This document shows, piece after piece, positions 4,701 through 50,261 of a DNA stretch of 64,000 bases (position 1 is the stretch's first letter; each line of letters opens with the position of its first letter). Source of the stretch: an uncultured Chthonomonadaceae bacterium (lineage in GTDB: Bacteria > Armatimonadota > Chthonomonadetes > Chthonomonadales > Chthonomonadaceae). The notes under the pieces are model-generated. The model was not told the DNA's origin and did not search any database. It saw only the letters and a program-made list of their open reading frames with translations. The DNA lies in contig CAWIEK010000022.1 in NCBI GenBank assembly GCA_963835065.1, forward strand, positions 32,001 to 96,000, given 5' to 3'. Made by a program: the position numbers and the translations under genes.

Positions 4701-5469
4701 GTATTCGATATGGGCGGCGGCGCGTTGGCTGTCGTCGAGTTGAGGGTTGAGAGGAAAAGACAATGATGAGTGATGAGTGATGAGTGATGAATGGGAATTC
4801 AATTCATCACTCATCATTCCGCGTTCAGCATTGTCTTCTCCCCCTCTCCCCCTCTCCCCCTTTCCTTTTCTATTCCCCGTTCCCTGTCCCCTGTTCCCTA
4901 ACAAGAGCGCGCTTGCCAGTTGCGTGAGGACGCAGGAGAGGGACAGGCCGGAGTGGGCGGCGAAGCGGCTTGCTTTCCAGCGGTGTTCCAGAAACAGCTG
5001 ACGGAGAACGGGGCCGGGGAGCAGCAATTCCGCCGCGAACAGGTTGGCTTCGGATTCGCGGCGCTCCTTGCGGCTGTAGCCTTCGGCAAGCTGGGAGTTG
5101 GGCAGGCGGAATCCGGGCGCGGCGAAAGCGTCGGGGGTGTCTTCGGCAAAGCACTGGTCGTGGCCGATTTCGGGGTGAAGCCAGATAGTGCGCGAACTCA
5201 TGCGCCTGCGCAAACAACTGCCGCTCGCGCCGAACGGACGCGCCGCCCGCGTACCAGATGCCGGGTATGTCGCGGTCCAGCACGGCATGAGCGCCCGCCA
5301 GCAGGCCGTCACCCGGCGGCACGGATATTCGCGTTACATCCGTCGCTTCCTGCGCGGCTTCCAAAAGCATTTCGGCAGGCGGCAGCAAAGGCGCGTCTTC
5401 CGGGAGGAAGGCGCGCAATTGCAAATGCTGTTCGTAAGCGCGGCGGCGCAGGGCGTTCCAATCGGGCAT
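1770..5469 (-). CDS. ImmA/IrrE-like metallopeptidase fused to UvrD/REP SF1 helicase and a C-terminal PD-(D/E)XK-like Fe-S domain (one frameshift near 5185)
   Basis: HEFAH (HExxH) in ORF 4870..5484 continues into ESEANLFAAELLLP in ORF 1770..5312. Helicase motifs AGPGTGKT, TFSNKAA, DEYQD, VGDLRQAIYRFRGA, LERNYRS, TVHKSKGLEF, FVALSRAR. C-terminal CPRQY...CSRCPFFLIC. Confidence 0.88.
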
Positions 5470-5539
5470 GGCAGTCCTAAACAACTTTTCACGCGAAGAT
5501 AGTATAGTTTACCCGAACGGACGCGCGTTTGTTTTGGGG

Positions 5540-6196
5540 CTACGGTTGTTCCAGCCAGAACTGTTTTTGTTCCGCGTTCATGTCGGTGCAGGCGCGAACC
5601 GCCGCGTCGAAATCTTCCGCCTGACCAGCTTGCGGGACGCCATCCGATTTGTAACTGGCTCCCATTGCCAGCGTACTTGGACGCGCAAGATAAGCGCGTA
5701 CCTGCTCCGTGCCCGTATCGAGCGCCTGCGCCAGCCGATTGACCAATTCCTCCGGTATGGTGGACAGCCTAATCAACCGCTGTTGCAACTTGGCGACAAG
5801 AGGCAGCCCGACGCCGATTTGGGACGCCAGCGTTTTGGGCGTCAAGCCCTGCGCTTTGGCCGCTTGAATCAAATCTTCAAGAGCGGGGACGGGCGCGGGT
5901 TCCAGAGCGGCAAAATAGCGCGTCCGCATTTCAGCCACGACGCTGCGCCCGATTGCCAGCGTATGCGCTTCGCCTGCCGCATCCGGCGTCGCGGTTTCCA
6001 GGGCGCACTCCAGCGTGGGCGCGTCTGCCGCCCATCCGATGAGTTCGTCGGCAAACTGCGGGTAGCGGTTCAGCCAGGCGCGCAGGGATTGCGGCGTGGC
6101 GCTTTGCCGATCCTCGCTCCAGTCGGCAAACAAAATATCTATAGCGTTCTGCTGCCGCTCCATGTCGGCTTGATTATTTTGGTTCATCAGGATCAC
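5540..6196 (-). CDS. Hypothetical protein with an XRE-like helix-turn-helix in the C-terminal half
   Basis: AKAQGLTPKTLASQIGVGLPLVAKLQQR resembles a Cro/C1 HTH. Lies between the sigma factor and the IrrE-helicase gene. Confidence 0.65.
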   Translation of the reverse strand: MILMNQNNQADMERQQNAIDILFADWSEDRQSATPQSLRAWLNRYPQFADELIGWAADAPTLECALETATPDAAGEAHTLAIGRSVVAEMRTRYFAALEPAPVPALEDLIQAAKAQGLTPKTLASQIGVGLPLVAKLQQRLIRLSTIPEELVNRLAQALDTGTEQVRAYLARPSTLAMGASYKSDGVPQAGQAEDFDAAVRACTDMNAEQKQFWLEQP

Positions 6197-6263
6197 CCAT
6201 TGTCTTGCGAAAGACTACAAAAGAAAGGATTGTAGAGCCGCCTGCGCGGTGTATACCCAGGCT

Positions 6264-6291
6264 ACTAGCCCGCGCGAAACCAAACCGGAAA
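6264..6291 (-). promoter_or_regulatory. Candidate ECF-type promoter TTTCCGGTTT-N14-TAGT (copy 1, upstream of the HTH gene)
   Basis: Minus strand tttccggttt ggtttcgcgcgggc tagt; identical boxes and spacing at 7429-7456. Confidence 0.5.
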
Positions 6292-6318
6292 GCAAAATTA
6301 AGAAACAGCTAAAAATAA

Positions 6319-6486
6319 AACCGCAAAGAAGCAAAGGAAGCAAAGAAAAAGCACACAAGAGAAGATATACCCACCTGGTAAACACTGATGAAATCGAAGC
6401 AAGAAAGTTTTATTGCGGTATTTGTAACTCGTCTGTAGGCGTTTTTCTTCTCTTCGCCTCTTTGCGTTCTTTGCTTCTTTGCGGTT
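6319..6486. repeat. Inverted-repeat element built of ~9-mer units
   Basis: aaccgcaaagaagcaaaggaagcaaaga ... tctttgcgttctttgcttctttgcggtt. Confidence 0.75.
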
Positions 6487-6494
6487 CACTCCCC

Positions 6495-7265: not shown

Positions 7266-7428
7266 GATTGACTCCGCCGGATGTTGAAAATTTGTCTTTT
7301 CGTCGGCTATCTGGGATAATAGACTATAGCAAAGCTGCGTTCGCGCCGTCGAATGGGAAGGAATTTGCAGGGTTATTGTACCCTGCGCGGCGCGGTTTTA
7401 GTTGATTTTTGTGCGCGTATTTTTTGTT

Positions 7429-7456
7429 TTTCCGGTTTTTGGTTCCGGCCTGTAGT
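7429..7456 (+). promoter_or_regulatory. Candidate ECF-type promoter TTTCCGGTTT-N14-TAGT (copy 2, upstream of the 7515 ORF)
   Basis: tttccggttt ttggttccggcctg tagt. Confidence 0.5.
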
Positions 7457-7514
7457 TCGTTAATTGTGGGGTGAAATCCTGCCTGATAGTCTGGTGAAAT
7501 CGAGGAACATAACG

Positions 7515-8008: not shown

Positions 8009-8051
8009 ATAGGTGTTCTGCCCGTCAATATAACAAATACTTTTCTTCAGA

Positions 8052-8744: not shown

Positions 8745-8753
8745 TTACACAGC

Positions 8754-21731: not shown

Positions 21732-22662
21732 ATGAACTGGCAACACTCTCTTGTATTGTTTCTCGCGTCCATGACGGCGGGAGCCATTAACTCCGTGGCG
21801 GGCGGCGGCACACTGCTGACGTTCCCGGCCCTCATCGCCACCGGGCATACCGCTTTGATTGCCAATGCGACCAGCACCGTAGCGCTGTGGCCGGGGCAGT
21901 TGAGCAGTCTGTGGGGCTACCGCAAAGAAATCGGGCAAACGCGGGCCGCTATTATTCCCCTCACGGTTCTTGGACTGCTTGGCGGCGTCGTGGGCGCATC
22001 CCTGCTGCTTATTACGCCGAGCAAAGTGTTCGACAAACTCGTGCCGTTTCTGGTTTTAGCGGCGACTTCGCTGTTCATGGCGCAGGAGCCGTTGGCGCGG
22101 CGTCAGAAAGCGCGGGCCGCGCAATTCGCGCAGGATGTGCCGAACGCCGCCGCATCCACCCGCCGAAGCCGCGCCCATTCCCAACACTTCCCCAGTTTCA
22201 GCCGCCATTGACAATGTTTCTGACAGCGCTGCTTCTGCTGCAATTCCCTCCCCGTCTTCTGCATCCGCTTCCCCTGTCACTGCCTTTGTTGCCGGCAAAT
22301 TGCCCCTGTCCATCGCGGTTCTCGCGTTCCTCACAGCCATTTACGGCGGCTATTTCGGCGCGGGCATCGGCATTTTGACCCTTGCCGCGCTCGGCTTCAT
22401 GGGCTTCACCAACATCCACCAGATGAACGGCGTGAAAAACATCTTTACCCTGTTCATCAACGGCATTGCCGCGCTGATTTTCGTGTTCAAGCACCTTGTA
22501 GATTACCCGACTGCCGGATTGATGGCGGCCGGGGCGATTTTCGGCGGGTATGCGGGCGCAGGCATTGCCCGGCGCATCGGGCAGAAAAACGTCCGGCGCG
22601 TCGTCATCGGCCTGGGCTTTGTCCTGACCCTTTCCCTGCTGTGGAAAGCGTGGAGCAGGTAG
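21732..22662 (+). CDS. TauE/SafE (TSUP) family exporter; frameshift near 22140-22170
   Basis: [17 protein letters not shown] in the first ORF and [10 protein letters not shown] in the second. Confidence 0.85.
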
Positions 22663-22760
22663 GCACAAGGCATTAGGCATTAGGCATTAGATACAGGACA
22701 GAAGACAGAAGTTACTTGTTCCTGATACCTAATGCCTAATGCCTTGTGCCTTGTGCCTTC
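22661..22760. repeat. Heptamer (AGGCATT/AATGCCT) inverted tandem repeat
   Basis: aggcacaaggcattaggcattaggcatt ... aatgcctaatgccttgtgccttgtgcct. Confidence 0.8.
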
Positions 22761-23271: not shown

Positions 23272-24522
23272 ATGAGTGAAGCAGTATTGGCGCAGGCAAA
23301 ACGGGCGAAGGAAGCGGCGCGGCGACTGGCGGCAGTTGGGGCAACGGTAAAGAACGCTGCCCTGACTGCAATGGCGGAAGCATTGACGGCGCAATCCGCG
23401 CAGATTTTAGACGCCAACGCGGTGGATGTGGCGGCGGGGCGGGAGCGCGGCCTGTCCTCGGCGCTGATTGAGCGGCTGACGCTGACGCCCAAACGCATTG
23501 AAGCTATGTCGGAAGGATTGCGGCAGGTTGCCGCCCTGCCTGATCCGGTCGGGCAAATACTGGATGGCGGGCGGCGTCCGAACGGGCTGGACATTCAGCG
23601 CGTCCGCGTTCCTCTGGGCGTTATCGGCATCATCTATGAAAGCCGCCCGAACGTGACCGTAGACGCGGCGGGTTTGTGCGTGAAAGCGGGCAACGCCGTG
23701 ATTTTGCGGGGCGGGTCGGAAGCCATTCGCTCCAACACGGTTCTGGCGCGTTTAATATCTGCGTCGGGCGAACGGGCCGGTCTTCCTCCCTACAGCATCC
23801 AACTGATCGAAACTACGGACCGGGACGCGGCAACCGCCCTGATGCGCGCGGAAGGTCTGGTGGATGTTCTCATCCCGCGCGGCGGCGAAAAACTAAAAAA
23901 AGTGGTGATGGAAAACGCAACCGTTCCCGTGCTGACGTCGCTCGGCGGCAATTGCCATACCTACGTGGATAGCGGAGCCGATCTAAGTATGGCGGCGGAC
24001 ATCGCTTTTAACGCCAAAGTGTCGCGCCCGTCCGTGTGCAACGCCATGGAAACCCTGCTGGTACACAAGGAGGGGGCCGCGCTGCTATTGCCGCCCCTGG
24101 GCAAGCGGCTTGTCGAAGCGGGCGTGGAAATCCGGGGCTGCGAGCGTACTCTGGCATTGCTTCCGCAGGCTATTCCCGCCACCGAAGAGGACTGGGCAAC
24201 AGAGTTTCTAGCCCTGACGCTTGCCGTTCGGGTCGTGGACAGTCTGGACGACGCCCTGCGCCACATTGCGCGCTACGGCACGGGTCATTCCGAAGCCATT
24301 GTCACGCCCAATTATGCAAACGCGCAGCGCTTTACGCAGGAAGTGGACGCGGCCTGCGTGTACGTCAATGCCAGTACGCGCTTTACGGACGGGTACGAGT
24401 TCGGGCAGGGCGCGGAAGTGGGTATCAGCACCCAAAAACTCCATGCGCGCGGCCCCATCGGCCTGACCGAACTGACCACCTACAAAACCATCGTGCGCGG
24501 CAGCGGACAGATACGGGAGTGA
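23272..24522 (+). CDS. proA: Glutamate-5-semialdehyde dehydrogenase
   Basis: VPLGVIGIIYESRPNVT, CNAMETLLVH, NASTRFTDG, ISTQKLHARGP. Confidence 0.97.
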   Translation: MSEAVLAQAKRAKEAARRLAAVGATVKNAALTAMAEALTAQSAQILDANAVDVAAGRERGLSSALIERLTLTPKRIEAMSEGLRQVAALPDPVGQILDGGRRPNGLDIQRVRVPLGVIGIIYESRPNVTVDAAGLCVKAGNAVILRGGSEAIRSNTVLARLISASGERAGLPPYSIQLIETTDRDAATALMRAEGLVDVLIPRGGEKLKKVVMENATVPVLTSLGGNCHTYVDSGADLSMAADIAFNAKVSRPSVCNAMETLLVHKEGAALLLPPLGKRLVEAGVEIRGCERTLALLPQAIPATEEDWATEFLALTLAVRVVDSLDDALRHIARYGTGHSEAIVTPNYANAQRFTQEVDAACVYVNASTRFTDGYEFGQGAEVGISTQKLHARGPIGLTELTTYKTIVRGSGQIRE

Positions 24523-24629
24523 AGAAGAGAAGAAAAGAAGAAGAGAAGAAGAGGAGAAATAAACCAAAAGAGAAGAGAAGAAAAGTGGTTCCATCTCCTT
24601 TTCTTCTCTTCTTCTTCTTCTTTTCTTCT

Positions 24630-25808
24630 TCACCTTGGTGTTCTTCGTGTCTTGGTGGTTCCAGTTCTTCTATGGCGGCGCTTCCTGCGGTGAGGCGTAG
24701 TCGAACGTGTTTCCCCTGACGCGGTTTTGCGTCCATCATCGTAAGTCTGAAGGCGCAGGCCGTTTAGTTTGGCGGTTTTTACGAACTTCGCCAGTCGTTG
24801 CGGAACCGTCACCGTATTGGGGTCGCCGTCGCTGACGTAGCGCTCGCTTGCGCCGGATTTCAGTTCATCGAGGGCTTCGGGGATGCCGCCCCCGCCGTTC
24901 ACGGCCAGAACGCGCGGAATTCGCAGGGGATCGAACTTTGTGGAAATCGGCGAGGGAGCCGGTCCGCCCCAGGCGTCGATGACGGCGCGGTTGGCGTAGG
25001 ATTTGCCGTTGTATTCGCCGGAAGTGAGAACGCTGTAGTTGTGCGAACGGGGCTTGCAGCCGCCGGGCAGGGCCAGCGTGTCCAGATGCGCGCCGGGAAC
25101 CATGCGCTCCGTGACGCTTTTGCCCAGGGCGATCTCTTTGGCAATGGCCGCGTCCGACATGCGGTTGAAATAGTGGTGGCTGAGGGTATGATTGCCTAAC
25201 TCGCAGCCCATATCGAGCAGGGCGCGCATTTTCTTCGTGGCGTAGCGCTCCGAGCCGAACGCCCCCTGGGGCAGCACGTAAAACATGGCTTTGGTGGGGA
25301 AATCAGGATGCTGGCGCGTAAACTCCTGCATGATGCCAATCGCGCAGTCCGGGTCTATGCTTTTGTCGCTGCGATAGCGGAATTGCGTACTGCGGGCGTC
25401 GTCGAAGGTCAGAATCACCGGGCTGGTTCCCAGGGGCAAATCCATTTTGTTGTTGAGGTACTCGCTGAGATTGACCGGGCGGTAGCCTTCGTCATACAAG
25501 CGCTGCAAATCGGCCTGAAACTCGTCCAGGCTGCGGTGCATCATGCGCGTGGCGCGGCCCGCATTGGATGGGGTAGCCCCGATTTCATGGTACTCCAGAA
25601 TCGGCACGCGCCCCGCTTCATTGACGCGCATGGCTTTTAACTGCGCGGGGTCAATGGCGGGCGCATCGGGCGTTTGCGTCTGATGCGGCGCGTTCTTGAG
25701 CGAAGCAGGCGTATAGCGAATGGGAACCGGGGCGCGCTGCCAGGCAAGCATCAGCCCCAACAGGGCGCAGAAAACCAAACCGGTACTCAGGAACAACAAA
25801 GATTTCAT
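24630..25808 (-). CDS. Polysaccharide deacetylase family protein
   Basis: PILEYHEI, ILTFDDA, LGNHTLSH; N-terminal TM. Start probably at 25808. Confidence 0.85.
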   Translation of the reverse strand: MKSLLFLSTGLVFCALLGLMLAWQRAPVPIRYTPASLKNAPHQTQTPDAPAIDPAQLKAMRVNEAGRVPILEYHEIGATPSNAGRATRMMHRSLDEFQADLQRLYDEGYRPVNLSEYLNNKMDLPLGTSPVILTFDDARSTQFRYRSDKSIDPDCAIGIMQEFTRQHPDFPTKAMFYVLPQGAFGSERYATKKMRALLDMGCELGNHTLSHHYFNRMSDAAIAKEIALGKSVTERMVPGAHLDTLALPGGCKPRSHNYSVLTSGEYNGKSYANRAVIDAWGGPAPSPISTKFDPLRIPRVLAVNGGGGIPEALDELKSGASERYVSDGDPNTVTVPQRLAKFVKTAKLNGLRLQTYDDGRKTASGETRSTTPHRRKRRHRRTGTTKTRRTPR

Positions 25809-25971: not shown

Positions 25972-27000
25972 TTATTCCTGCGGGCATGGCAGGAAGGTCG
26001 TTCCCACGCCGCGCTCGTGTACCACGTCGTCTATGACGCGCTCCCGACGCCCGCGCGCAATTACTGTACGAATACCCGATTGTGTGGCAATTCTGGCCGC
26101 TTCAATTTTGGTACGCATCCCGCCCGTACCCACGCCGCTCGTCGCTTCCCCGCCCAGCGCGGCAATCGCCGCGTCAATGCGCTCTACCGTAGAGATGAGG
26201 GTGTTGGGTGTCGGGTGTCGGGTGTCGGGATTTTGGATTGCCGATTGCCGAATTACTGTCTTCTGTCTTCTGTCTTCTATCTTCTCTTCTGTTCCCTGTT
26301 CCCTGTTCCCTGTTCCCTGTGTCTTCTCCTCTTCTTCCTCCGGCGGCTGCGCGTACAAGCCTTCCACGTCGGAAAGGATGAGCAGTAAATCCGCGCCGAC
26401 GAGGGTGGCGACGCGGGCCGCTAAGGTGTCGTTGTCGCCGAATTTGATTTCGTCTACGGCTACCGTGTCGTTTTCGTTAATGATGGGCACGACGCCCATA
26501 TCCAACAGCGCGCGCAGGGTATTTTGCGCGTTGGCAAAGCGGACTGCGTCGCTCAGGTCGTCGCGGGTCAGCAGCACCTGCGCGACCGTCACTTCCCGCC
26601 ACGCGAACGCTTCGGTATACGTGTGCATCAGCAAGCCCTGCCCGATGGCGGCGGCGGCTTGCTTAAAGGCGAGGGTATTCAGGTGTTCGGTGTTCAGGTG
26701 TTCAGGTGTTTTGATACTTGGATGTCCCTCTGTGGGCGCGTCCATTACGAACTTATTGATTGAATCTGCATTCTCCTGAACACCCGAATACCTGAATACC
26801 TGAATACCTGAATACCCAGCCCCCATCGCCTCTCTTCCCGCCCGTATCGCGCCGGACGTGACCAACACCACGTCGCGGTTCTGCGCCCGCTGCGCGGCCA
26901 ATTGCGCGGTCAAATCGGCAATAAACGCGCGGTCAATGCGTCCGTGTGTATTGGTGAGCGTACTGGTTCCAACTTTAACCACAATGCGCTGCGGCAGCAT
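25972..27000 (-). CDS. proB: Glutamate 5-kinase (no PUA domain) carrying two in-frame repeat insertions
   Basis: VVKVGTS, VTSGAI, QAAAAIGQ, INENDTV, FGDNDTL, GTGGMRTK. Confidence 0.95.
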   Translation of the reverse strand: MLPQRIVVKVGTSTLTNTHGRIDRAFIADLTAQLAAQRAQNRDVVLVTSGAIRAGREAMGAGYSGIQVFRYSGVQENADSINKFVMDAPTEGHPSIKTPEHLNTEHLNTLAFKQAAAAIGQGLLMHTYTEAFAWREVTVAQVLLTRDDLSDAVRFANAQNTLRALLDMGVVPIINENDTVAVDEIKFGDNDTLAARVATLVGADLLLILSDVEGLYAQPPEEEEEKTQGTGNREQGTEEKIEDRRQKTVIRQSAIQNPDTRHPTPNTLISTVERIDAAIAALGGEATSGVGTGGMRTKIEAARIATQSGIRTVIARGRRERVIDDVVHERGVGTTFLPCPQE

Positions 27001-27903: not shown

Positions 27904-28024
27904 GCATTTAATATTAGGCATTAGGCATTAGGTAGGATGCGAATTATGTGCAAATTACCCTGCACAGCCAAGTGTTAAGACGGCTTCCCCCTAATGCCTA
28001 ATATCTAATATCTAAATACCTACC

Positions 28025-29050
28025 GTGAGGAGTAGGATCATGTTGCTAATCAGGTGGGCGCAGTGTCGGCGCATTCAGCCGGCGTTGTGGGATTTTGCGT
28101 CGGAGCGCCTGTCCGAAGAAATGATGGAGCGGGTAGAACAGCATTTGCATGGCTGCATCGCCTGTGACCGCGAACTCGCGTCGCTGAAGCGGGCGCAAAC
28201 CTTGCTGGCGGCCTGCCGCGCGCAGGAAGAACCCGCGCCCCGCGCCGATTGGAGCGACCTGCGGCAGCGCATCGTTGCCGAGGGCCTTGCGCATATCGCC
28301 ACGCCTGCCTTGTCACGGCGTACCGGCAAAACGGCAGGCCGCGAGCGCGCGACAAGCGGGTATCGCGCCCCCTGGACGATGCAGTTGGCGACCTCGGCGG
28401 CAGGCGGTTTCGCCGCCGTGCTGGTGCTTGGATTGGGTTACGGCGCGTTCCATGCGCGGAATACCGGTTTGCCCGCGTCGCCTGTGGTGTCCGTTCCGCC
28501 GGGACAAGTTGTGCCCACTTCGCCCGAACAACTCGCTTCTGCTTCTGACGCGCAAAACGCGCAATGGCCGGAGAACGTAGTAAAAGCCCTGAACAGCCTA
28601 TCGGTACAAAGCGATAAAATCGAGACAGCCGGTTCCATGCCTGCAAAGAGCGTTCACGTTGGCGCGACTGCCTCTGCGCCAAATACGCATGGCTCCCATA
28701 GCGTTACGACATTTCGAGTAACAGGCACGGGACGTGGACACAAAACAACGCCCCGAATGGACTACGCAGCCGCGTCAATGCCGCCGAGAATGACCTATGT
28801 CGGCCTGCGCGAAGCATCGGCTCGTCGCGCGCCCACGCCTAAAACATTCGCTTCGGCGACAATTACGCCGAAGTCCCGACGTTCCAACGGTAAATTCGGC
28901 CAACAATCGGCAAGCGCGCCGCAAACGCAGATCGCTTCCAACTATGCCCTGGGCCATGTCAAGCCCGACGGAAGCGACAGCGGCGATTCCAACATCAATG
29001 TCATCGGCGTCGTCAGTCCTGTGTCCCGCGACGATGATGGCGTCTACTAA
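28025..29050 (+). CDS. Zinc-binding anti-sigma factor (ZAS/zf-HC2) with TM helix
   Basis: HLHGCIAC (HxxxCxxC), central TM, directly after the ECF sigma gene. Confidence 0.85.
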   Translation: MRSRIMLLIRWAQCRRIQPALWDFASERLSEEMMERVEQHLHGCIACDRELASLKRAQTLLAACRAQEEPAPRADWSDLRQRIVAEGLAHIATPALSRRTGKTAGRERATSGYRAPWTMQLATSAAGGFAAVLVLGLGYGAFHARNTGLPASPVVSVPPGQVVPTSPEQLASASDAQNAQWPENVVKALNSLSVQSDKIETAGSMPAKSVHVGATASAPNTHGSHSVTTFRVTGTGRGHKTTPRMDYAAASMPPRMTYVGLREASARRAPTPKTFASATITPKSRRSNGKFGQQSASAPQTQIASNYALGHVKPDGSDSGDSNINVIGVVSPVSRDDDGVY

Positions 29051-29052: not shown

Positions 29053-29146
29053 GTCAGGTGTCAGGTATCAGGTGTCAGGTGTCAGAGAAGGATTTCTTCT
29101 GCGCCTCGTCCTGACACCTGAACACCTGACACCTGATACCTGAACC
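29053..29146. repeat. Heptamer (TCAGGTG/CACCTGA) inverted tandem repeat
   Basis: tcaggtgtcaggtatcaggtgtcaggtgtcag ... ctgacacctgaacacctgacacctgatacctga; the same family occurs at 46817-46930. Confidence 0.85.
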
Positions 29147-33386: not shown

Positions 33387-33507
33387 GTAGATATTAGATA
33401 TTAGGCACAAGCCCAATACCTAACACCGAACACCTGAACACCGCAATACCTGAACGCCCAACACCCAATACCTAACACCCAATACCTGAAACAAAGGAGT
33501 TTATTTT

Positions 33508-34569
33508 ATGACGACAACAAGTGACGCGATTTCATTTGCCTGCATCGGCGTGGGCGGGCGCGGCGGGTATCTGCTGCAATTACTGCTGAAGATTGAGGGC
33601 GTGGCCGTTCGCGCCGTGTGCGATCCCAATGCCGATAATCGCGCCAAAGCCAAAAAGTTGATTGAAGCGGCGGGGCAGGCCGCGCCCGTGGAGTTCGAGC
33701 ATTGGGAGCAGGCATTGGCGCATCCGGGCATTGACGCCGTTGTCAGCGCCCTGCCGTGCGGCCTTCACGCCCAAAACTATCTGGACACGATTGCGGCGGG
33801 CAAAAACCTGTACGGCGAAAAACCGCTTGCCTTAACCCCGCAGGAGTGCGACACCATTGTCAGCGCGGCCAACAGCAGCAAGCAGATCGTGCAGTTAGGG
33901 TTTCAGCGCCGGGCCGACCCGCGCTTCATCGAAACCATGCAGGAGATCTACGCGGGCGAGTTGGGCGATCTGGTGGAAGGGCGCGTGTGCTGGTCCAACG
34001 CCTGGGGACCGCTGTACAACTGGTTCGGGCATCGGGACGTGTCGGGCGACTGGATGGTGGAACAGGCCGTCCACAACTGGGATGTAATCAATTGGGCGAC
34101 GCGCAGTTTGCCGATTCGCGCAATGGGCATGGGACGCAAGGGACTTTACCACGAACAGCAGCCGGATCGAGACGTGACCGACTATTACTCCGCGCTGGTC
34201 GAATACCCGAATGGCCTTGTCGTCAACATTCTGCACAGTTGGGTGGCTCCCGGTCAGGAAGGCGCGTACAAGCCCGCGTTCAACGACGAGTACACGCGGC
34301 TGTTGGGAACAAGGGGCGGCGTGGATTTCAATTCCGGCCTGATTTCCTACCGCCGCGAACTGAAACTGCCGGATCGCCCCGGCCAAAACCTGCCCGAAGG
34401 CGTGACCAATTCCCTCCTGTGCCTGCAAGCCTTTGTAAACTCGGTACGGACCCGCAAGCCGCCGGTTGCGGGCGTTCAGGAAGGCCGCGATTCGGTACTG
34501 GCCTGCCTGCTGGTGCGCGAAGCCGTAAACCGGGGCGGCGTGGTGACGATGGAGGAGCTAACGGCATGA
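33508..34569 (+). CDS. Gfo/Idh/MocA family oxidoreductase
   Basis: IGVGGRG, GEKPLA, QLGFQRR, EQAVHNWD. Confidence 0.9.
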   Translation: MTTTSDAISFACIGVGGRGGYLLQLLLKIEGVAVRAVCDPNADNRAKAKKLIEAAGQAAPVEFEHWEQALAHPGIDAVVSALPCGLHAQNYLDTIAAGKNLYGEKPLALTPQECDTIVSAANSSKQIVQLGFQRRADPRFIETMQEIYAGELGDLVEGRVCWSNAWGPLYNWFGHRDVSGDWMVEQAVHNWDVINWATRSLPIRAMGMGRKGLYHEQQPDRDVTDYYSALVEYPNGLVVNILHSWVAPGQEGAYKPAFNDEYTRLLGTRGGVDFNSGLISYRRELKLPDRPGQNLPEGVTNSLLCLQAFVNSVRTRKPPVAGVQEGRDSVLACLLVREAVNRGGVVTMEELTA

Positions 34570-36409
34570 GGATTTTGGATTTCGGATTTTGGATTTTAGA
34601 TTGGGTAGGGCTTCATTTCGAAGTTTTCGCGCTCCGGCGTTGGGAACGTCGGGCATTTGCGCCTTCCTCTTTCGTCTTTCCCCTTTTGCCTTTCGCCTTT
34701 TTCGTGTGTTTCGCGTTTTTCGCGGTTTCCAAATCCGAAGCGCAGAACAATGCGCCTGACCCTGACCTGCAGGTACAGAATGTGCCGCATGGAACCGTGA
34801 AGGACTATGTGTGGAAAACAAGCCATGTGTATCCCGGCACGGAACACAACTACCGCGTGTATGTTCCCGCGCAGTACGATCCTTCCAAGCCGGCCTGCGT
34901 GATGATTTTTCAGGACGGATTGGGCTTTAACGCGCCGACCGTGTTTGACAATCTCATCGCCAAAAAGCAGATGCCCGTCACGGTTGCCATTGGCATCAGT
35001 CCGGGCGTGGCTCCCCCTGCGGGCGCAAACCCCGGCAACGCCCTGCCCCGCTTCAATCGCAGCGTGGAATACGATACGCCCGATGATACGTATGCGCGGT
35101 TTCTGCTCGACGAGATTTTGCCGGAAGTGGGCAGAACCCTGAACCTGAGCCGGAATCCCAATGACCGGGGCCTGTGCGGGGCAAGTTCGGGCGGCATTGC
35201 CGCGTTCACCGCCGCATGGGAGCGTCCCGACCAATTCCGGCGCGTGTACAGCGTGATCGGCAGTTTCACCGACCTGGCGGGCGGCGACACGTACCCGTCG
35301 AAAATCCGCAAGTACGAACCGAAACCGCTGCGCATCTATTTGCAGGACAACGACCAGGATCAGGACATTTATTCGGGAAGCTGGCCGCTTGCCAATCAGG
35401 AAGTGGCGGCGGCGCTGAAGTTCGCCGGGTACGACGCGCAGTTTACGGTGGGCAAGGGCGGGCATGACGGCAGGCCGGGAAGTTTGATTTTTCCCGAAGT
35501 GATGCGCTGGCTGTGGCGCGATTATCCCGCGCCTATTGCGGTCAACACAGCGTCGCGGCAGCCCATCATGCAGATCGTTTCGCCGGGTGACGATTGGCAG
35601 GAAGTGGAATCGGATGTGGTTCACGCGCTGGCGACGGACAGCGCGGGCAGCGTGTACGCGGCAGGCCGGGATGGGATCACCTGTCTTGGAACATCAAGCA
35701 TCAAACCCCTGCCGCCAATCGCCAACGCGAACGCGCTTGCCTTTGCTCCCGATGGCAGGCTGATTGTGGCGGATACGGACAATCAGCGCCTGCTGGCTTA
35801 CGATCGCAAACGGCAAACTGACAGTGCTTAGCCCGCAATATCAGTCGTCATCCACGCTTGACCGTCAGCCATCAGGGCACGATGTATTTTCAGGATGGCG
35901 CCGACGAAAGCATCTGGCAAATGACAAAGAAGTGGACAGAGCGCGCAGAGTGGCGGAAGGCGAAACAACTTCCTTCGTGCTGCAGCCTTCCTCCTTGACC
36001 CTAACGCCCGACCAAAGCCTGCTGATTACAACGGGAGTGAGGCCGCGCAAATCGCTGGTGTCATGGCGCGTACAGGCGGACGGAACGCTTGCCGATGCCG
36101 AGCCGTTCTTTGACCTGACCAGCGCGTATCATCAGACGGGACAGGCAGGCGACGGCAATGGTGACGGACACGCAGGGCTGGCTGTACGTGGCGACTCCGG
36201 CGGGTATTCAGGTGTGCGATCAAGCGGGGCGCGTGAACGGCATCCTGTCGCTGCCGACCCGCCGACTGCCGACAGCCATGACGTGGGGCGGAACCAACCG
36301 CGATACGCTGTACCTGGCCTGCGGCGGCGCATTATACAAGCGCAAATTGCGCGTCAAGGGCGTACTCCCTTTCGAGGAACCCATCAAGCCACCTTCGCCG
36401 CGCTTGTAG
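34566..36409 (+). CDS. Enterochelin-esterase-like alpha/beta hydrolase fused to an SMP-30/gluconolactonase propeller; several frameshifts after 35800
   Basis: VYVPAQYD, GASSGG nucleophile elbow; propeller fragments LTPDQSLL and DTQGWLYVAT-GIQVCDQAGRVNGI. Confidence 0.8.
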
Positions 36410-41030: not shown

Positions 41031-41149
41031 AGGCCCAATCTGAAATACGGGTATTCAGGCGTTCGGTATTCAAGTGTTCGGGCATTTTTAATACGGGATG
41101 GTGAGCGCAGTTCATCCAATCTTCCCCAAAAGCGCGGGAAAGGGGAGCG

Positions 41150-42074
41150 TTATTCGAGAGTTTGGCGCAATGCCTGCAAGCGGGTTTCATATTCCGCAAT
41201 CGCCGTCAGCACTTCCTCACGGTTGGCTTGAAAAATGGCCTGCCAAAAGGCGCGGTCCGCAACGGCCACGCGGGTCAGGTCACGGAAACTGCTGCCCGCC
41301 ATCTGAAGCGCCTGCTCCGCGTCCGTCTGCGCGGCAATCATGTCGGCGAACGCGAACGAAAGCGCATGCGGCAAATGGCTGACCAAAGCCACAAGGCGGT
41401 CATGCTGCGCGCTGTCCAAAAGCACTGGGTCGCGCTTCCAAAGCCTGCGCCATTGCCGCCAATTTTGCCGCCCAAACATTTGCCTTCAAGTCCGGCAATT
41501 CCCTGCCGACAATGCCCCACGCCGCACCCGTAAACACATCCGCCCGCGCCGCGTCAATGCCGCCTGCGGGAGCGCCCGCCATCGGATGTCCGCCCACAAA
41601 ACGGCTTCCAAAACACCGCTCCCCGGTTTCTACAATTAACCGTTTCGTGCTGCCAATGTCGGTAATCAGCGCATCTGACGGCACAAGGGGAACCAATATT
41701 TCCAACAGACGTGGGATTGCAGGAACCGGAGCGGCCACAATCACGCAATCCGCGTCCGCCACGCCCGCCCCTAAACCCAGCGCGGCCTCATCAATGGCTC
41801 CTATCTCCCGCGCCCGCGCCAAAACGCGCTCACTCGTATCCACGCCCACAACCGTTTGCGCCAGCCCCTTCGCCCGCAGCGCCATGCCAAGCGAACCGCC
41901 CATCAGCCCGACGCCGATAATGGCGACACGCTGGAAGAGAGGAGAATTAGGAAATGATGAGTGATGAGTGATGAGTGATGAATAGGATGCTGCATTGTAT
42001 TCATCATTCATCATTCCGCGTTCAGCATTTCCTTCTGTTCCCTTCTCCTCATATTCGCGTTCATTCGCGTTCAT
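41150..42074 (-). CDS. tyrA: Prephenate/arogenate dehydrogenase; frameshift near 41430
   Basis: IIGVGLMGGS, DIGSTK, GGHPMAG, then HDRLVALVSHLPH and SFRDLTRVA. Confidence 0.9.
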
Positions 42075-42089
42075 TCGCGGCTATCCGTT

Positions 42090-45901: not shown

Positions 45902-46810
45902 TTAACCCTCCACGCGCTGATTGATGAGATGCGCCAGATAGCCCGCGCCGAAGCCGTTGTCAATGTTGACCACGCCCACGCCGGTTGCGCACGAATTCAG
46001 CATCGTCAGTAACGCGGAAAGCCCCTGAAAACTCGCGCCATAGCCTATGCTTGTCGGCACGGCGATGACGGGACGCGATACCAGCCCGCCGACTACGGAC
46101 GCCAGCGCCCCCTCCATGCCCGCTACCACGACCAGCACATTGGCGGCAAACAACCGCTCCTGATTGTTCAGCAGCCGATGAATCCCCGCCACGCCCACGT
46201 CGTACAAGCGTTCCGTCGGGCTGCCCATTTCCGTCGCCGTCACCACCGCTTCTTCCGCCACCGGTAAATCCGCCGTGCCTGCGGAGACGACGAGGATAGT
46301 TCCGAGGGAAGAGGGTGTCGGGTGTCGGGTGTCGGGTGTCGGGAAGGGCATTGCCGATTGTTGATTGTCAATTGCCGATTGGGGTTCTTCTGTCTTCTCT
46401 TCTGTTCCCTGTTCCCTGTTTCCTGTTCCCTGCTCTTCTCTATCCCCTTCATCCTTCATCCTTCCGCCTTCATCCTTGCTTTTGACTACCAGCATCCGCG
46501 CCAGTTCGTGATAAACCGCGTTCGGGAATTGGCGGAGGACGGCCTGCGCGACTTCGGGCGTGGCGCGGGACGCGAGGACTTTCGGGGAGCGGAGGATCAG
46601 GCGGTCCAGAATGGCGAGAATGTGTTCCGTCGTTTTGCCGGGACAATACACCACTTCCGGGAAACCGTTGCGCAGAGCGCGGTGGTGATCCAGTTTGGCA
46701 AATCCCAAATCTTCATACGGCAGGGAGCGCAGGGACGCCAGCGCCTCGTCAATCGAGGTGTCGCCCCCTTTCACCTGTTCCAGCAATTGTCGTAATCGTT
46801 CGGCATCCAT
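45902..46810 (-). CDS. larB: Nickel-pincer cofactor biosynthesis protein LarB with an in-frame repeat insertion
   Basis: DHHRALRNGFPEVVYCPGK, AGTADLPVAEEA, DVGVAGIHRL, AGMEGAL, VVNIDNGFGAG. Confidence 0.95.
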   Translation of the reverse strand: MDAERLRQLLEQVKGGDTSIDEALASLRSLPYEDLGFAKLDHHRALRNGFPEVVYCPGKTTEHILAILDRLILRSPKVLASRATPEVAQAVLRQFPNAVYHELARMLVVKSKDEGGRMKDEGDREEQGTGNREQGTEEKTEEPQSAIDNQQSAMPFPTPDTRHPTPSSLGTILVVSAGTADLPVAEEAVVTATEMGSPTERLYDVGVAGIHRLLNNQERLFAANVLVVVAGMEGALASVVGGLVSRPVIAVPTSIGYGASFQGLSALLTMLNSCATGVGVVNIDNGFGAGYLAHLINQRVEG

Positions 46811-46929
46811 AATTGTTAGGTGTCAGGTGTCAGGTGTCAGGTGTCAGGTAATGGGTATTAGATTGGACGTGTTCTTATGCCTGCGACAATCATCCTAATA
46901 CCTGATACCTAACACCTGACACCTGACAC

Positions 46930-47637
46930 CTATTTCTTCGGTGGTTGCGCGGGCGCTTGCACTTCCTGCGCGCCTTTCGGGGGTGAGAAAATAAACGCGC
47001 TGGCCGGCAGGGGCGCGTTGACGGCTTCGGATTTTACCAGGGTTTGAATGACGCGCGTACTCTTGCCGTTGGACTGCGTCACGCGCGCCTGCTTGACGTG
47101 GTGCGTTGCTTTGTCAATGTAGATTACAACCACAGTGGAGCCGTTTTGTACCGGCGGAGCCAGTTGCAGCGTGTAGCAGGCTGCGCCGCCGACGCTTGCG
47201 GGAGCCAGCAGCGTGTAATACGTGGCTTTCGGGTTCATGCCGCCAAACGGCAGGCCGTACTGCAATCCCATAATCGGCAGCAGATTCGGGTTGTGCGGCT
47301 GCTTGAAATACTTGCTTGAGGCAAGGTCCAGCATGTAACTGATCTGGCCGTCATCCACAACCTGCGCGCCCTGCTTGCCGCCCGCGCCGGTTTTCTCTCG
47401 GGGCGTCACTACAATGTGGGCTTTTTGGCCCGCAATGAACTGCCCATCGGTTTGTACGCCGGTCGGCGGCTGGTTGTCTATGGTAACAGTGGTTTGCAGC
47501 GACACCTTCAGCGTCTTCATGTTGTGATAGACCGCGTTGGTTTTGGCGATGATGGTTTTTACGTCCTGCGCCTGCGCGGTTTGAGCGGTCAGCAGGACGC
47601 AGGCCGCGCCTGCTGCCGCTCCGAATAGTTTCAGCAT
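46930..47637 (-). CDS. LolA-like/outer-membrane lipoprotein-sorting fold secreted protein
   Basis: Signal peptide AQA-Q; C-terminal VNAPLPASAFIFSPPKGA. Confidence 0.7.
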   Translation of the reverse strand: MLKLFGAAAGAACVLLTAQTAQAQDVKTIIAKTNAVYHNMKTLKVSLQTTVTIDNQPPTGVQTDGQFIAGQKAHIVVTPREKTGAGGKQGAQVVDDGQISYMLDLASSKYFKQPHNPNLLPIMGLQYGLPFGGMNPKATYYTLLAPASVGGAACYTLQLAPPVQNGSTVVVIYIDKATHHVKQARVTQSNGKSTRVIQTLVKSEAVNAPLPASAFIFSPPKGAQEVQAPAQPPKK

Positions 47638-47825
47638 GAGAAGATCGAATCCCCTATTTTGTGTGGTTCGCGCTGTTTCCCGCCATGCCGAGCATAGCGG
47701 CCTGAAGCGGGTTAGCGGCAAATTCCGCCATCGCCGGTATCTGTTTCGCGCCGACAGGGGGCGTAAACTTGAACAGGCTGTCGTGTACCGCCGACGTATT
47801 TTAGGAACAAGATAAGCAAGGCCGT

Positions 47826-48750
47826 CTACTTTTTGATGAGTTGTATGGAAGAAAGCGGAACCATATCGGATTTTTTCGCCAGCGTGTCGTTCATTTTACC
47901 CGAACGGTAGCCTTCCAGATCGAGCGTAACATAGGTATAGCCCAATTCTTTGAAGCGGGCGTTGACGACTTCGCGCAGTTCCACCAGCCGTACAATATCC
48001 TGCGGTTCCACTTCGATGCGGGCAACCGTGTCATGGTGTCGGACGCGGAACTGCCGGAAGCCCAATTCGCGCAGAAACTTCTCGCAGCCATCCAGTTGCG
48101 CCAGCAGGGGAGCCGTGATTTCCGTGCCGTAAGGGAAGCGAGACGACAGGCAGGCGAACGAGGGCTTGTCCCAGTTCGGAACGCCCAGGTGCAGGGCCAA
48201 CGCGCGCACGTCGGCTTTGGTCATGCCCGCTTCGCGCAGGGGACTGCGAACGCCGCGCTCTTCCGCCGCCCGAATACCGGGCCGGTGGTCGCCCGGCTTA
48301 CCGTCGTCGGCATGGGAGCCGTCCACGATCCAGGGGATATTGCGTTCCTGCGCGACGGTTTGCAGTTCGCTGAACAGTTCGGTTTTGCAATGGTAGCAGC
48401 GGTTGGGCGTATTCACGGCAAAATTCGGGTTGGCGAGTTCATGGGTGCGGACGCGCGTAACGGTCACGCCCATCGCCTGCGCCACATCCAGCGCGGCATC
48501 CACTTCACCCTGCGGAAACGCTTCCGAATCGCCGGTCACGGCCACGGCATGGTCGCCAAGCACATCATGGGCCACTTTCAGCACAAGCGTACTGTCCACG
48601 CCTCCCGAATAGCCGATGACGCACGTGCCCATGTCGCGTAAAATCGTCTGCAAATCGGCGTATTTGGCCGCAAGTTCGGCGGAAAGCGGCGTTTCTTCTG
48701 CCCGATTGTTGTATGCCGGTTGCTGCAAAGGAAGCATTGTCTCTGTCACG
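47826..48750 (-). CDS. larE: ATP-dependent sacrificial sulfur transferase LarE
   Basis: PP-loop YSGGVDS, RCYHCK, ACLSSRFPYG, RVRHH, DLEGYRSG. Start uncertain. Confidence 0.93.
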
Positions 48751-48878
48751 GTCTTTCCTCGTGTAAGATAAGAGATATGAGATAAGAGATTAAGAGAGGC
48801 AGGCGCTTTGTAGATGGTACAATATCCCAACATCCTGTACTCTTATCTCATATCTCATATCTCTTATCTGCTCTCTCC

Positions 48879-50261
48879 CTATGAAATCTGCTCAATTTTC
48901 CCGCCGGCGAACAGCCGGAATTTCTGGCCCCGCCAGATAATATGGCTGCCGCAGAAACTGATGATGAACAGCGCGCTCTGGATTAAATCGTCCAACGGCA
49001 GCAACGGCCAGTACCGGCGCACATTGGAGTCATGGGTATATACGCTTGCAATCCAGGCGGCGGCAGCAATCCGCAGGGCTATTATACACGCAAAAATGGT
49101 CAATCCCATCCTATTGAAGCCCATAGCGATTGCAAACAGGAGGGCCAGCGTCGTTCCCTGCGTGACAATCGCCGCCGCATATCCCTTCGGGCGGTACGCG
49201 CGCACGGTACGCGCCCACCGCAGCCGCCGCGCCCACATCGTTCCAAACGGTTCCGCGCCCAAAACGTTCTCAACCATATAGTTTGCGATAACGACCCGGT
49301 ACCCGGCTCGTTTCACGCCGTTTCCGAGCAAAAAATCGTCGGCCAGATCGTCCAGAATGGCTTCAAAACCGCCGATTTGTCGCAGCATCCCCTGCGACAA
49401 AGCCATCGTCGCGCCGAACGCGAAATCCACCTCATTCAGCAGTCGGCTGACCAGCGCGTTCGGAATAAAGTCCGCCCCAAACCCCAACGCCTCCAAACGC
49501 GCCGCCAAACTTTGCGCCTGAAACCCCCGATACGGGCAGGTGACAAGCCCGACGGAAGATAAGGATGAAGGATGAAGGATGAAGGATGAATCGATTGCCG
49601 ATTGTGAATTGGCGATTGGCGACTGCTTGCCTACTGTTCCCTGTTCCCTGTTCCCTGTTCCCTGTTCCCTGTTCCCTGTTCCCTGTCCTGCTGTCTTCTC
49701 TTCTTCTCTTCTTCTCTTCTTCTCTTCTTCTTTCTGTTCCCTGTTCCCTGTCCCCTGTTCCCTGAACGGAGCGACGACATTGCGCAGGTAGTCGGGGGCG
49801 ACGCGGATGTCGCTGTCGCATAACACCAGCAGGTCGTGCCGGGCGTGGGGCAGCATGGACACCAGGTTACATACTTTCAGATTATGGCCGCGCCGGGTCT
49901 CGAAGGGCGTTGGCGTGACAATGGCTATGTCGCGTTCCGGGAACTCGCACTGTAAACGCCGCGCAACCAGCAGGGCGGGGTCATCGGCGTCCAGCGCGCC
50001 GAAAATAATCTGGACGCGGTCAGCGGGGTAGTCCTGGCGGCAAAAACTGACGTAGTTGTCGTAAGCGTAAGCATCCGCGCCGCGCACCGGCTTGAGAATG
50101 GTGACGGGGGGTGTCCAGTCCCGATCCGGGGCGGTCCGGGCGCGATGCCACTGCCGCGCCGCCCAAACGGAAGCGCCCGCATACGCGCTGTAGGCGGCCA
50201 GTCCCAGTCCGAGCAAAACGCGGACGATTATGAGCAGTTCCTCAGTCCATTCATGCGCCAT
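48879..50261 (-). CDS. hpnI: HpnI/ceramide glucosyltransferase-like GT2 enzyme with an in-frame repeat insertion
   Basis: ILKPVRG, NLKVCNL, DSDIRV, GLVTCPY, LADDFLLG, RRLRWAR. Confidence 0.8.
   Translation of the reverse strand: MAHEWTEELLIIVRVLLGLGLAAYSAYAGASVWAARQWHRARTAPDRDWTPPVTILKPVRGADAYAYDNYVSFCRQDYPADRVQIIFGALDADDPALLVARRLQCEFPERDIAIVTPTPFETRRGHNLKVCNLVSMLPHARHDLLVLCDSDIRVAPDYLRNVVAPFREQGTGNREQKEEEKKRRREEEKTAGQGTGNREQGTGNREQGTVGKQSPIANSQSAIDSSFILHPSSLSSVGLVTCPYRGFQAQSLAARLEALGFGADFIPNALVSRLLNEVDFAFGATMALSQGMLRQIGGFEAILDDLADDFLLGNGVKRAGYRVVIANYMVENVLGAEPFGTMWARRLRWARTVRAYRPKGYAAAIVTQGTTLALLFAIAMGFNRMGLTIFACIIALRIAAAAWIASVYTHDSNVRRYWPLLPLDDLIQSALFIISFCGSHIIWRGQKFRLFAGGKIEQIS

Follow-up and report, generated by a model that had tools for sequence, protein, structure and literature searches.

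Heptamer and octamer repeat modules in frame within conserved enzymes of an uncultured Chthonomonadaceae bacterium as probable members of a genome-wide repeat family

Introduction

Short repeats dispersed over bacterial genomes include the STRR sequences of cyanobacteria, reportedly described by Mazel et al. in 1990, and the REPINs, which are said to go back to Bertels and Rainey in 2011. The present study concerns a 64,000-nucleotide stretch of DNA from an uncultured Chthonomonadaceae bacterium (the window, G000:C22:32001-96000; the source genome, labeled G000, comprises 8.0 Mb in 71 contigs with 57% G+C), in which arrays of tandem heptamers and octamers are found in frame within conserved enzymes. 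A preliminary description of the window had likened these arrays to cyanobacterial STRRs and to Rickettsia palindromic elements (RPEs), and the comparison is apt; the published precedents are partial. Four of them are considered here. Heptamer repeats with the unit GGGNATC in Xanthomonas and Nostoc were interpreted as quadruplex formers and are reported to be under-represented within coding sequences (Rehm et al., 2015, PMC4692102). TAACTGA direct repeats occur in Beggiatoaceae, cyanobacteria, and Bacteroidetes, and their stop codons limit them in open reading frames (ORFs; MacGregor, 2015, PMC4679880). RPEs are families with a consensus of ~150 bp that are found in frame in many genes, with 44 insertions in R. 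conorii (PMC10969869). The intervening sequence of the Coxiella 23S rRNA gene has terminal inverted repeats (28-bp stem), an S23p ORF, and three GACAGAT repeats, and is excised by RNase III (Warrier et al., 2016, PMC4990558).

The repeats of G000 share with RPEs the position of small repeats in frame in many unrelated metabolic genes, where RPEs are thought to be compatible with the protein fold (PMC10969869), and one of the inserts in ProB (site 2) is a whole palindromic module of ~150 nt in frame. They differ from RPEs in that they are strings of 7-8 nt arrays with no full-length consensus (the cores are unique), in that most genic modules are not palindromic (median RNA folding z of −0.5), and in their far larger number (429 genic modules). 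With GGGNATC repeats and STRRs they have in common dispersed heptamer arrays of few copies per site, recurrence of one unit at numerous sites, a tendency towards four units per array, and convergent inverted pairs with the G-rich strand inward (here 244 exact pairs and a polarity of 411:4). As with GGGNATC repeats, the modules are located between co-directional genes and rarely between divergent ones (164 co-directional, 17 convergent, and 2 divergent flanking gene pairs). GGGNATC repeats represent one unit type, whereas the present system uses about 30 units, most of them without G-tracts and some of them mostly genic and in frame. The intergenic half of the system is of the GGGNATC kind.

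TAACTGA repeats resemble the present ones as heptamer arrays of two to six copies near start codons, whose possible locations are restricted by stops in one orientation and whose distribution across phyla is patchy; they differ in consisting of one unit that is almost always direct and intergenic (2 of 24 mapped Microcystis sets in ORFs, PMC4679880). The likeness to the Coxiella intervening sequence lies in a four-helix-bundle ORF between inverted repeats with heptamers beside the ORF, to which three PF05635 genes between heptamer or octamer arrays correspond here. In contrast to Coxiella, these cassettes lie between protein genes, the inserts of the window contain no ORF, and excision by RNase III has been shown for rRNA only. 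REPINs and MITEs are comparable in their inverted arms (~25-35 nt, ~57 nt apart), high copy number, and location in intergenic gaps, but the internal sequence is not conserved in G000 (230 of 259 singletons) and no linked RAYT or transposase was found in a search for Y1 proteins. No regular target-site duplication was evident in the flanks examined. The literature searched contained neither in-frame heptamer arrays in ~200 genes of a large free-living genome, nor rules of order, phase, and polarity, nor a contrast between structured intergenic and unstructured genic modules.

Results

Repeat modules in the enzymes of the window

Tandem Repeats Finder detected period-7 or period-8 arrays at each place for which low-complexity inserts had been described, in agreement with the raw letters, and the host frames run free of stops through the inserts (Table 1). 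Open frames are those of a 1,180-residue protein (1770-5312, − strand), ProB (25972-27000, −), LarB (45902-46810, −), and HpnI (48879-50330, −). The names given earlier to these hosts hold; the 1,180-residue protein, previously termed an IrrE-helicase, carries M78 (IrrE-like), UvrD, and PD-(D/E)XK domains. ProB, LarB, and HpnI pass the curated NCBIfam cut-offs and are matched in three, two, and two stretches, respectively, as expected if they are split by two, one, and one foreign segments. Translation of the host frames yielded the recurring peptides noted before, GTGNREQ, PDTRHPT, SSLITHH, and SSFILHP, which are cyclic translations of heptamers; any of the three frames of a heptamer array gives an identical seven-residue cycle.

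The helicase-linker module consists of (CTCATCA)n, to which a partial inverted partner belongs, of an octamer array, and of arrays similar to GGGAACA. Its translation includes ...GQGTGNRKGKGERGRGGEDNAERGMMSDELNSHSSLITHHSS..., and an inner hairpin is present. The C-terminal insert of ProB comprises, in sense order, an octamer (GAAGAGGA-like), (CAGGGAA)4, (GAAGACA)3, (CGGCAAT)2, and (CCGACAC)3, encodes EEEEEKTQGTGNREQGTEEKIEDRRQKTVIRQSAIQNPDTRHPTP, and is without RNA structure. The N-terminal insert of the same protein is a whole hairpin-type module in frame, whose two arrays are separated by ~64 nt. In LarB, the order is (ATGAAGG)n, (CAGGGAA)4, (AATCGGC)-like in four copies, and (CCGACAC)4. The C-terminal ProB insert and the LarB insert indeed share their module order, GGAACAG, CGGCAAT, and GACACCC in the sense direction. 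The HpnI insert consists of (CAGGGAA)4, an octamer array (GAAGAGAA)5, (CAGGGAA)7.6, an (AATCGSC)-like array, and (CATCCTT)4.

Arrays had also been placed at the apparent N-termini of TyrA and an esterase. They are present at both sites, and this part of the description stands; their translation is less clear. In the case of TyrA, the module contains (CTCATCA)4, a partner (GATGAAT)n, and a 10-mer array and forms a hairpin; the conserved protein starts near ORF residue 45, and the arrays may be a leader. Apart from the repeats, the prephenate dehydrogenase ORF (41400-42074, −) stops after the N-terminal domain, and the C-terminal part seemingly lies in another frame at 41033-41480, due to either a frameshift or an assembly error. 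The esterase gene is located on the + strand, and whether its arrays, (GGATTTT)4.7 and a CTTTCGC-like one, are translated depends on the start codon chosen. The ATG at 34566 overlaps the stop codon of the preceding gene. If read from this ATG, the repeat DNA would encode a hydrophobic segment, FVFPLLPFAFFVCFAFFAV, followed by SKSEAQ, which resembles a signal peptide.

Genome-wide census

The dense and modular character of the repeats was confirmed by a tandem census of the whole 8.0-Mb genome, in which period 7 dominates and a small set of units is shared. Exact arrays of at least three copies numbered 163, 31, 32, 1,330, 123, 6, and 1 for periods 4, 5, 6, 7, 8, 9, and 10, respectively; the excess of period 7 is far beyond chance. 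Among the period-7 and period-8 arrays, 84 canonical units were distinguished, the top 12 of which account for 1,003 of 1,453 arrays. About 30 units in three to five copies make up the system: copy numbers of 3 (332 arrays), 4 (698), and 5 (292) prevail over 6 (7) and 8 (1), with a ceiling of array length at ~34 nt. At a looser threshold of about 2.6 copies, 2,157 arrays were found in 1,484 modules.

Genes were called with a crude codon-usage finder (6,165 genes, 79% coding). With the counts for genic modules being approximate for this reason, 778 modules are intergenic, 277 lie over a gene end, and 429 are inside genes, compared with 3,740 of 5,000 randomly placed positions inside genes; the intergenic share is 52% versus 19% by random placement. 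Individual units are mostly genic (AACAGGG in 188 of 236 arrays, AATCGGC in 43 of 53). At least 30 residues from both gene ends are 313 deep genic modules, for 229 of which the host frame gives the best score on either flank, with 1,595 of 2,000 random genic places as the control. Therefore, nearly all deep modules are real in-frame inserts, in at least 199 genes. A Pfam family (1e-5) was found in 37 of 40 host genes drawn at random. By our own reading of module positions against the Pfam table, the module lies inside or splits a domain match in 16 of these 40 hosts and between domains or near termini in the remainder. Hosts of this first kind include AcrB, IlvD, an FGGY kinase, LeuRS, a second class I tRNA synthetase (two modules), an M28 peptidase, two aminotransferases, and a menaquinone enzyme. 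Hairpin modules were also seen within conserved operons, at the rplR-rpsE, rplQ-truA, kdpA-kdpB, and fliM-fliN junctions.

Polarity, order, phase, and folding of the modules

The same units build two kinds of module, an intergenic hairpin and a genic string of different arrays. Neighboring intergenic arrays are mostly exact inverted copies (244 exact and 61 one-mismatch pairs among 673 neighbor pairs), and the hairpin consists of a G-rich array, an AT-rich and mostly unique core of ~57 nt, and the complementary C-rich array. The core has a median length of 57 nt (55-59 nt in 92 of 259) and 44% G+C; clustering with blastn-short revealed no conserved core, since 230 of the 259 form singleton clusters, and only a weak AAATGCC-like end signal. 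Genic neighbors are mostly different units at a distance of ~11 nt (212 of 266 pairs). RNA folding relative to shuffled sequences gave a median z of −9.6 for 80 intergenic or gene-end modules and −0.5 for 80 genic ones.

In modules with both types of array, the G-rich arrays are located 5' of the C-rich ones in 411 cases and in the reverse arrangement in 4 (strand-symmetric count). On the sense strand, AACAGGG precedes AAGACAG (19:2 for versus reverse) and AATCGGC (16:0), AAGACAG precedes AACTATC (13:0), and AATGATG precedes ACTCATC (17:0). The phase is restricted as well: ACTACTG arrays start with CTACTGA in 136 of 145 cases, AAGGATG arrays with AAGGATG in 92 of 112, and AACAGGG arrays end with GGAACAG in 155 of 236, where one in seven would be expected by chance. 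Taken together, phase, order, polarity, and folding fit copies of defined elements and not slippage at arbitrary local heptamers.

Translation of the genic arrays

Of the 398 arrays whose unit has a stop codon on either strand alike (AATGCCT, ACTACTG, AAAACCCT, and others), 9 lie within genes, compared with 445 of the 707 arrays whose unit is open on both. Since the gene finder is unable to cross stops, the genes flanking stop-bearing modules were checked directly. Among 30 random pairs between co-directional genes, none represented the halves of one family; both partners had a Pfam match in 23 of the 30, and pairs such as KdpA/KdpB, Lgt/LspA, L18/S5, L17/TruA, and FliM/FliN were obtained. For 11 units open on both strands with at least five genic arrays each, the more hydrophilic strand is the one read in 328 arrays and the less hydrophilic one in 37. 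The G-richness of the sense strand predicts the reading strand less well (236:80). The residues that the modules encode show an excess of S, N, Q, T, E, and G and a deficit of A, V, L, W, F, and M. The preliminary description had considered a removal of the inserts at the RNA or protein level. This is unlikely because of the avoidance of stops, the strand preference, and the lack of split genes; such constraints on stops and strand would not exist if the segments were removed before translation. In addition, genic modules are on the whole no more structured than shuffled sequences, and no intein or intron domain (Hint, endonuclease, or intron-encoded) was detected by Pfam in 47 host proteins scanned. 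Translation of the genic arrays, into disordered and hydrophilic loops, is likely.

Position of the inserts in the proteins

For ProB, LarB, and HpnI, the inserts are absent or different in orthologs outside the genus. In an alignment of ProB with 13 orthologs of the same order, both inserts are located at variable surface segments; no counterpart exists in 11 orthologs from other genera, one of the two sites carries a different insert in G011, and in the congener G001 both sites contain additional, unrelated sequence. An AlphaFold2 model of ProB, built with 17 sequences, had a pTM of 0.79, with pLDDT values below 50 only at residues 62-95, 226-238, 240-257, and 288-292; of these, 62-95 belong to the N-terminal and 226-257 to the C-terminal insert. 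Outside such residues, the model matches the amino-acid-kinase domain of glutamate 5-kinase from E. coli (2w21, TM 0.91 on target). LarB relatives from 80 named genomes match over ~247-250 residues, compared with 302 residues here, the nearest being that of an Anaerolineae metagenome-assembled genome (59% identity). The phylum suggested by this match may be mistaken, and the LptF/G, PSCyt/PSD1/DUF1501, and FliM/N genes of the genome are in keeping with a diderm from a different phylum. The HpnI insert is missing in G015 and represented by few residues in G001. The suggestion that inserts reside in surface loops or linkers is therefore in accordance with the inter-domain linker of LarB, the variable low-pLDDT segments of ProB, and the random hosts.

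An assembly artefact does not explain the inserts, because a contig from a public run bridges gene and array over 25972-26247. A public contig from a related strain has a 16-nt octamer indel at 26331. In four runs of DNA or unspecified type, the ProB stretch is covered piecewise with breaks at the arrays, and no contig spans a whole insert. Runs with arrays include soil and biocrust metagenomes.

Turnover and spread among relatives

Two congeners contain 7 and 8 arrays per 200 kb, respectively, versus 19-46 in twenty 200-kb samples of G000, so that their array load is four to five times lower; period 7 is still prominent there. The pattern (AACAGGG)3 was counted 195 times in G000, 6 times in G001, 5 in G002, 8 in G011, and 20 in G015, and was not found in 26 other relatives searched. 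(AATGCCT)3 occurs 190 times in G000 and is absent from 30 other genomes. Among 401 sampled genomes of the phylum, (AACAGGG)3 is present in 11 genomes of at least six families; the reversed control pattern matches three other genomes, in which other heptamer arrays exist, too.

A comparison of single sites between G000 and G002 revealed other arrays in G002 at both ProB insert sites. In LarB, only the (AAGGATG)n part is common to both species, and in HpnI the octamer and (CATCCTT)n are in common, with (GATACGA)n replacing (CAGGGAA)n. The hairpin upstream of LarB extends in both species from the preceding stop codon to a few bases before the LarB start. In G002 it is composed of (GAGATAC)3, 50 nt, and (GTATCTC)3, so both arm units differ from those of G000, and the cores have only GCATAAGA in common. 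The arms of this hairpin change their unit together between congeners. From these site comparisons it follows that modules persist at tolerant sites while arrays are gained, lost, or replaced. Synteny between G000 and G002 is limited to the surroundings of ProB and to 43.5-50.7 kb, with 73-87% identity; because of this divergence, the exact insertion borders are not visible.

In viral contigs, (AACAGGG)4 was found in 86 stretches, often preceded by short repeats similar to CTCACTG or GGACTCA. None of 80 loci examined has an inverted partner within 600 nt, and in 73 of these 80 an open frame of at least 150 residues runs through the array. These data neither support nor exclude a transfer of arrays by phages.

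S23p cassettes and candidate mobilizers

The proposed link to four-helix-bundle genes, i.e., those of intervening sequence proteins, holds for this genome insofar as all three of its PF05635 genes are bracketed by inverted arrays that use the units of the system and begin with the G-rich arm (Table 1). The arm units also build modules without a gene, among them 62 gene-less AGTAGTC pairs. Eleven PF05635 loci of relatives comprised four bracketed on both sides, one of which has (AGGGAAC)/(CTGTTCC), three bracketed on one side with the expected skew, and four with nothing clear. The association of S23p cassettes with the arrays is suggestive. We know of no nuclease or polymerase fold in the S23p protein. 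Due to the small number of cassettes, the lack of a correlation between copies and load, and the lack of a known nuclease or polymerase fold, the link is unproven, and the modules of the window, which contain no PF05635 ORF, are at most gene-less relatives of the cassettes.

A mobilizer of the RAYT/IS200 type was rejected: none of four Y1_Tnp matches has flanking arrays above the background of 0.19 modules per kb, and two of the four resemble IS605-type units, having a second gene. Neither a transposase nor a reverse transcriptase could be tied to the arrays, in a search that covered Y1 proteins and did not extend to reverse transcriptases, DUF559, or other transposase families.

Discussion

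We consider it quite probable that the inserts are the gene-internal members of a family of ~1,500 modules and that they are translated as disordered hydrophilic loops filtered by selection. The arrays would be copies of defined elements rather than products of local slippage. The S23p cassette, known also as the 23S rRNA intervening sequence, is probably their origin or has a mechanism in common with them, and new arrays would mostly be added into or beside existing modules. In genes, selection would purge versions that contain a stop, shift the frame, read as hydrophobic, or form a long RNA stem. About 3% of the predicted genes carry repeat DNA that is most likely translated, including those of tRNA synthetases, AcrB, IlvD, ProB, and LarB; the spread of the repeats would therefore steadily supply core proteins with new disordered loops and linkers, and perhaps with signal peptides, and the inserts also produce annotation and alignment errors. 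Any mechanism for this repeat class, unexplained since the STRRs were described, must satisfy the rules of polarity, order, phase, and length; these rules also offer an automatic recognition of inserts as well as natural markers of insertion-tolerant sites in enzymes. The S23p cassette is a testable candidate for the parent element.

Several observations weigh against this interpretation. In the ProB gene of G002 (L002, G002:C7:96682-100662), a TAG and two changes of frame surround the C-terminal module, and the gene is either broken by the repeat or mis-assembled. None of the public runs recorded as RNA contains the ProB stretch. ProB site 2 has a stable stem (z of −6.7), and a few genic modules keep strong stems. 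Genes show no depletion of (AACAGGG)n, with 188 of the 236 arrays inside them and 46 intergenic, a share that random insertion followed by purifying selection does not predict. The gene finder missed the esterase and mis-called TyrA, which makes the counts of genic modules approximate. As a source of the arrays, the cassette is weak: three cassettes stand against 1,484 modules, PF05635 copies do not correlate with array load in 31 genomes, and G015 and G001, with 20 and 6 (AACAGGG)3 matches, respectively, have no PF05635 match. Finally, the cores of gene-less hairpins are, by eye, unlike the inner flanks of the cassette with the same arms.

A further-reaching idea, for which we see a small chance, is that of one cross-phylum mobile element, an S23p four-helix-bundle gene between polar heptamer-array arms that are laid down by templated synthesis. 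Such an element would be behind the STRR-type repeats, the convergent G-rich pairs of Xanthomonas, the ORF-bearing 23S intervening sequences, and the low-complexity in-frame loops of hundreds of housekeeping enzymes. The arms would not be passively inherited; their synthesis would be templated, polar, and length-limited, with the G-rich strand running 5' to 3' towards the center over about four to five units and a fixed end phase, and would resemble the telomere-like extension of an end at a break more than it would transposition or slippage. Templated synthesis would explain the joint change of the unit in both arms with a unique core.

The view that the arrays are copies competes with ordinary simple sequence repeats (SSRs), each expanded at its own site through slippage during replication, without copies passing from site to site. 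In many prokaryotes, no long SSR is commoner than heptamers (PMC4679880, PMC4692102), and copy numbers vary between strains, as seen for the octamer indel at 26331. However, 12 units make up more than two thirds of the arrays although more than 1,000 canonical heptamers are possible; the end phase, order, and polarity are fixed, array length stops at about five units without a tail, and the hairpin arms swap their unit together between congeners. Slippage is thus an unlikely origin. The genic arrays might instead be kept as beneficial, either as hydrophilic disordered loops that help a soil or crust organism to keep its proteins soluble or to tolerate desiccation, or as G-rich quadruplex regulators. 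In favor of a benefit, the share of (AACAGGG)n inside genes equals the coding fraction, above the expectation for random insertion and loss given its intergenic number, the preference for four units fits the quadruplex argument made by Rehm et al. (PMC4692102), and array holders include the soil and biocrust runs. Against it, congeners differ in what an insert at the same site contains, a GGG tract is missing from most units, and the peptide and not the G-rich strand predicts the reading strand, with C-rich strands read when they are hydrophilic; we regard this explanation as improbable.

A removal of the inserts before the protein is made or mature, by excision of the RNase III type or by protein splicing, appears very unlikely. 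Its precedent is the S23p cassette of Coxiella, removed from 23S rRNA by RNase III at the terminal stem (PMC4990558), and strong stems are present in ProB site 2, in the leader of TyrA, and in a portion of the helicase module. Cutting by RNase III does not rejoin a messenger, though, genic modules are unstructured as a class, and the avoidance of stops and the choice of the hydrophilic strand would not matter for excised segments. Split genes and Hint or intron-encoded domains were not encountered in the samples given above, and the insert borders differ between congeners, unlike those of inteins or introns. Scarcely credible, in our opinion, is a role as contingency loci, in which the gain or loss of seven bases would shift the frame and switch the host gene. 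A 7-nt unit does shift the frame, and the 16-nt indel and the out-of-frame ProB of G002 near its module are of the expected kind, but the hosts are housekeeping proteins (ProB, tRNA synthetases, IlvD, AcrB), the arrays have only three to five units, and the same arrays fill intergenic gaps. The hallmarks of phase variation, a long mutable array, a surface or restriction gene, and on/off alleles, were not found, with allele data consisting of contigs only.

Further features of the window

The intergenic modules of the window are listed in Table 1 together with the genic ones and the arms of the three PF05635 cassettes. Arrays like those of the hairpin between HpnI and the next gene were not seen at the matching site of G002.

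Table 1. Repeat modules of the window and arms of the PF05635 cassettes (arrays in enzyme hosts as reported by Tandem Repeats Finder where a copy number follows "x"; z, RNA fold relative to shuffled sequences)
Feature	Position	Strand	Location or basis	Arrays	z
Helicase-linker module	4755..4900	−	between M78 (IrrE-like) and UvrD domains of ORF 1770-5312	4764-4899: TGATGAG x3.9, TCTCCCCC x3.6, TCCCCTG-like x3.9	−2.0
Intergenic module	22660..22759	.		(TAGGCAT)4.4, short arrays, (CCTAATG)/(TGCCTTG)	
Purine-rich octamer arrays	24521..24631	.	between convergent genes	(GAAGAAGA)n, then complement (TTCTTCTC)n	
ProB C-terminal-site insert (site 1)	26198..26340	−	repeat finder, ortholog alignment, AlphaFold	26199-26340: GGGTGTC x4.4, GATTGCC x2.3, CTGTCTT x4.3, CTGTTCC x4.6, TCTTCTTCC x2.2	−0.1
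ProB N-terminal-site insert (site 2)	26672..26820	−	repeat finder, ortholog alignment, AlphaFold	26674-26816: GGTGTTCA x4.8, CCTGAATA x5.2	−6.7
Intergenic module	27913..28015	.	ECF sigma factor gene to anti-sigma gene	(ATTAGGC)2.9 ... (CTAATAT)2.6	
Hairpin module	29053..29143	.	immediately 3' of stop of gene 28025-29050	(GTCAGGT)4.7 ... (CCTGACA)4.7	−11.1
Intergenic arrays	33388..33487	.	upstream of gene 33508-34569	(TAGATAT), (ACCTGAAC/ACCGAAC)n	
Esterase N-terminal arrays	34566..34730	+	esterase 34566-35831 (Pfam Esterase)	at 34570-34729	
TyrA (prephenate dehydrogenase) module	41940..42080	−	upstream of or at N-terminus	at 41955-42079	−6.3
LarB insert	46310..46482	−	linker, N-terminal domain to AIRC/PurE-like domain	46313-46477: GGGTGTC x4.4, ATTGCCG x4.6, CTGTTCC x4.4, CCTTCAT x4.6	+0.7
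Hairpin module	46814..46931	.	stop of gene 46930-47721 to LarB start	(GGTGTCA)5, 46 nt, (CCTGACA)5	−11.8
Hairpin module	48766..48869	.	HpnI to next gene	(AGATAAG)4.4 ... (CTCATAT)4.3	−7.6
HpnI insert	49555..49765	−	inside glycosyltransferase domain, after VAPFRE	49561-49764: AAGGATG x4.3, CTGTTCC x7.6, TCTTCTCT x5.4, CTGTTCC x4.4	+1.9
Solitary array	63471..63501	.		(CTATCAA)4.4	
PF05635 cassette arms 1				(AGTAGTC)4.7 ... (CTACTGA)n	
PF05635 cassette arms 2				(AAAAGGAG)3 ... (CTCCTTTT)3	
PF05635 cassette arms 3				(GGGAACA/GGTTACA) ... (CTGTTCC/CTGTAAC)	

A separate family of octamer pairs, (ACACAGAG)n ... (CTCTGTGT)n with arms 120-290 nt apart, is present at 926-1094 of the window and at ~25 places in the genome. 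At 1639-1697 and 59646-59705, 28-nt stretches are duplicated in tandem, with perfect or nearly perfect copies that have no relation to the heptamers. A tandem repeat of 67-68 nt (~9.4 copies, 75% identity) at 62215-62860 probably encodes leucine-rich repeats. The window also contains a type III restriction-modification pair (53104-57383, +), consisting of an N6/N4 DNA methylase and a ResIII helicase with a restriction endonuclease domain, and the genome as a whole has LptF/G, DUF1501, PSCyt1/PSCyt2/PSD1, FliM/N, and FtsZ genes.

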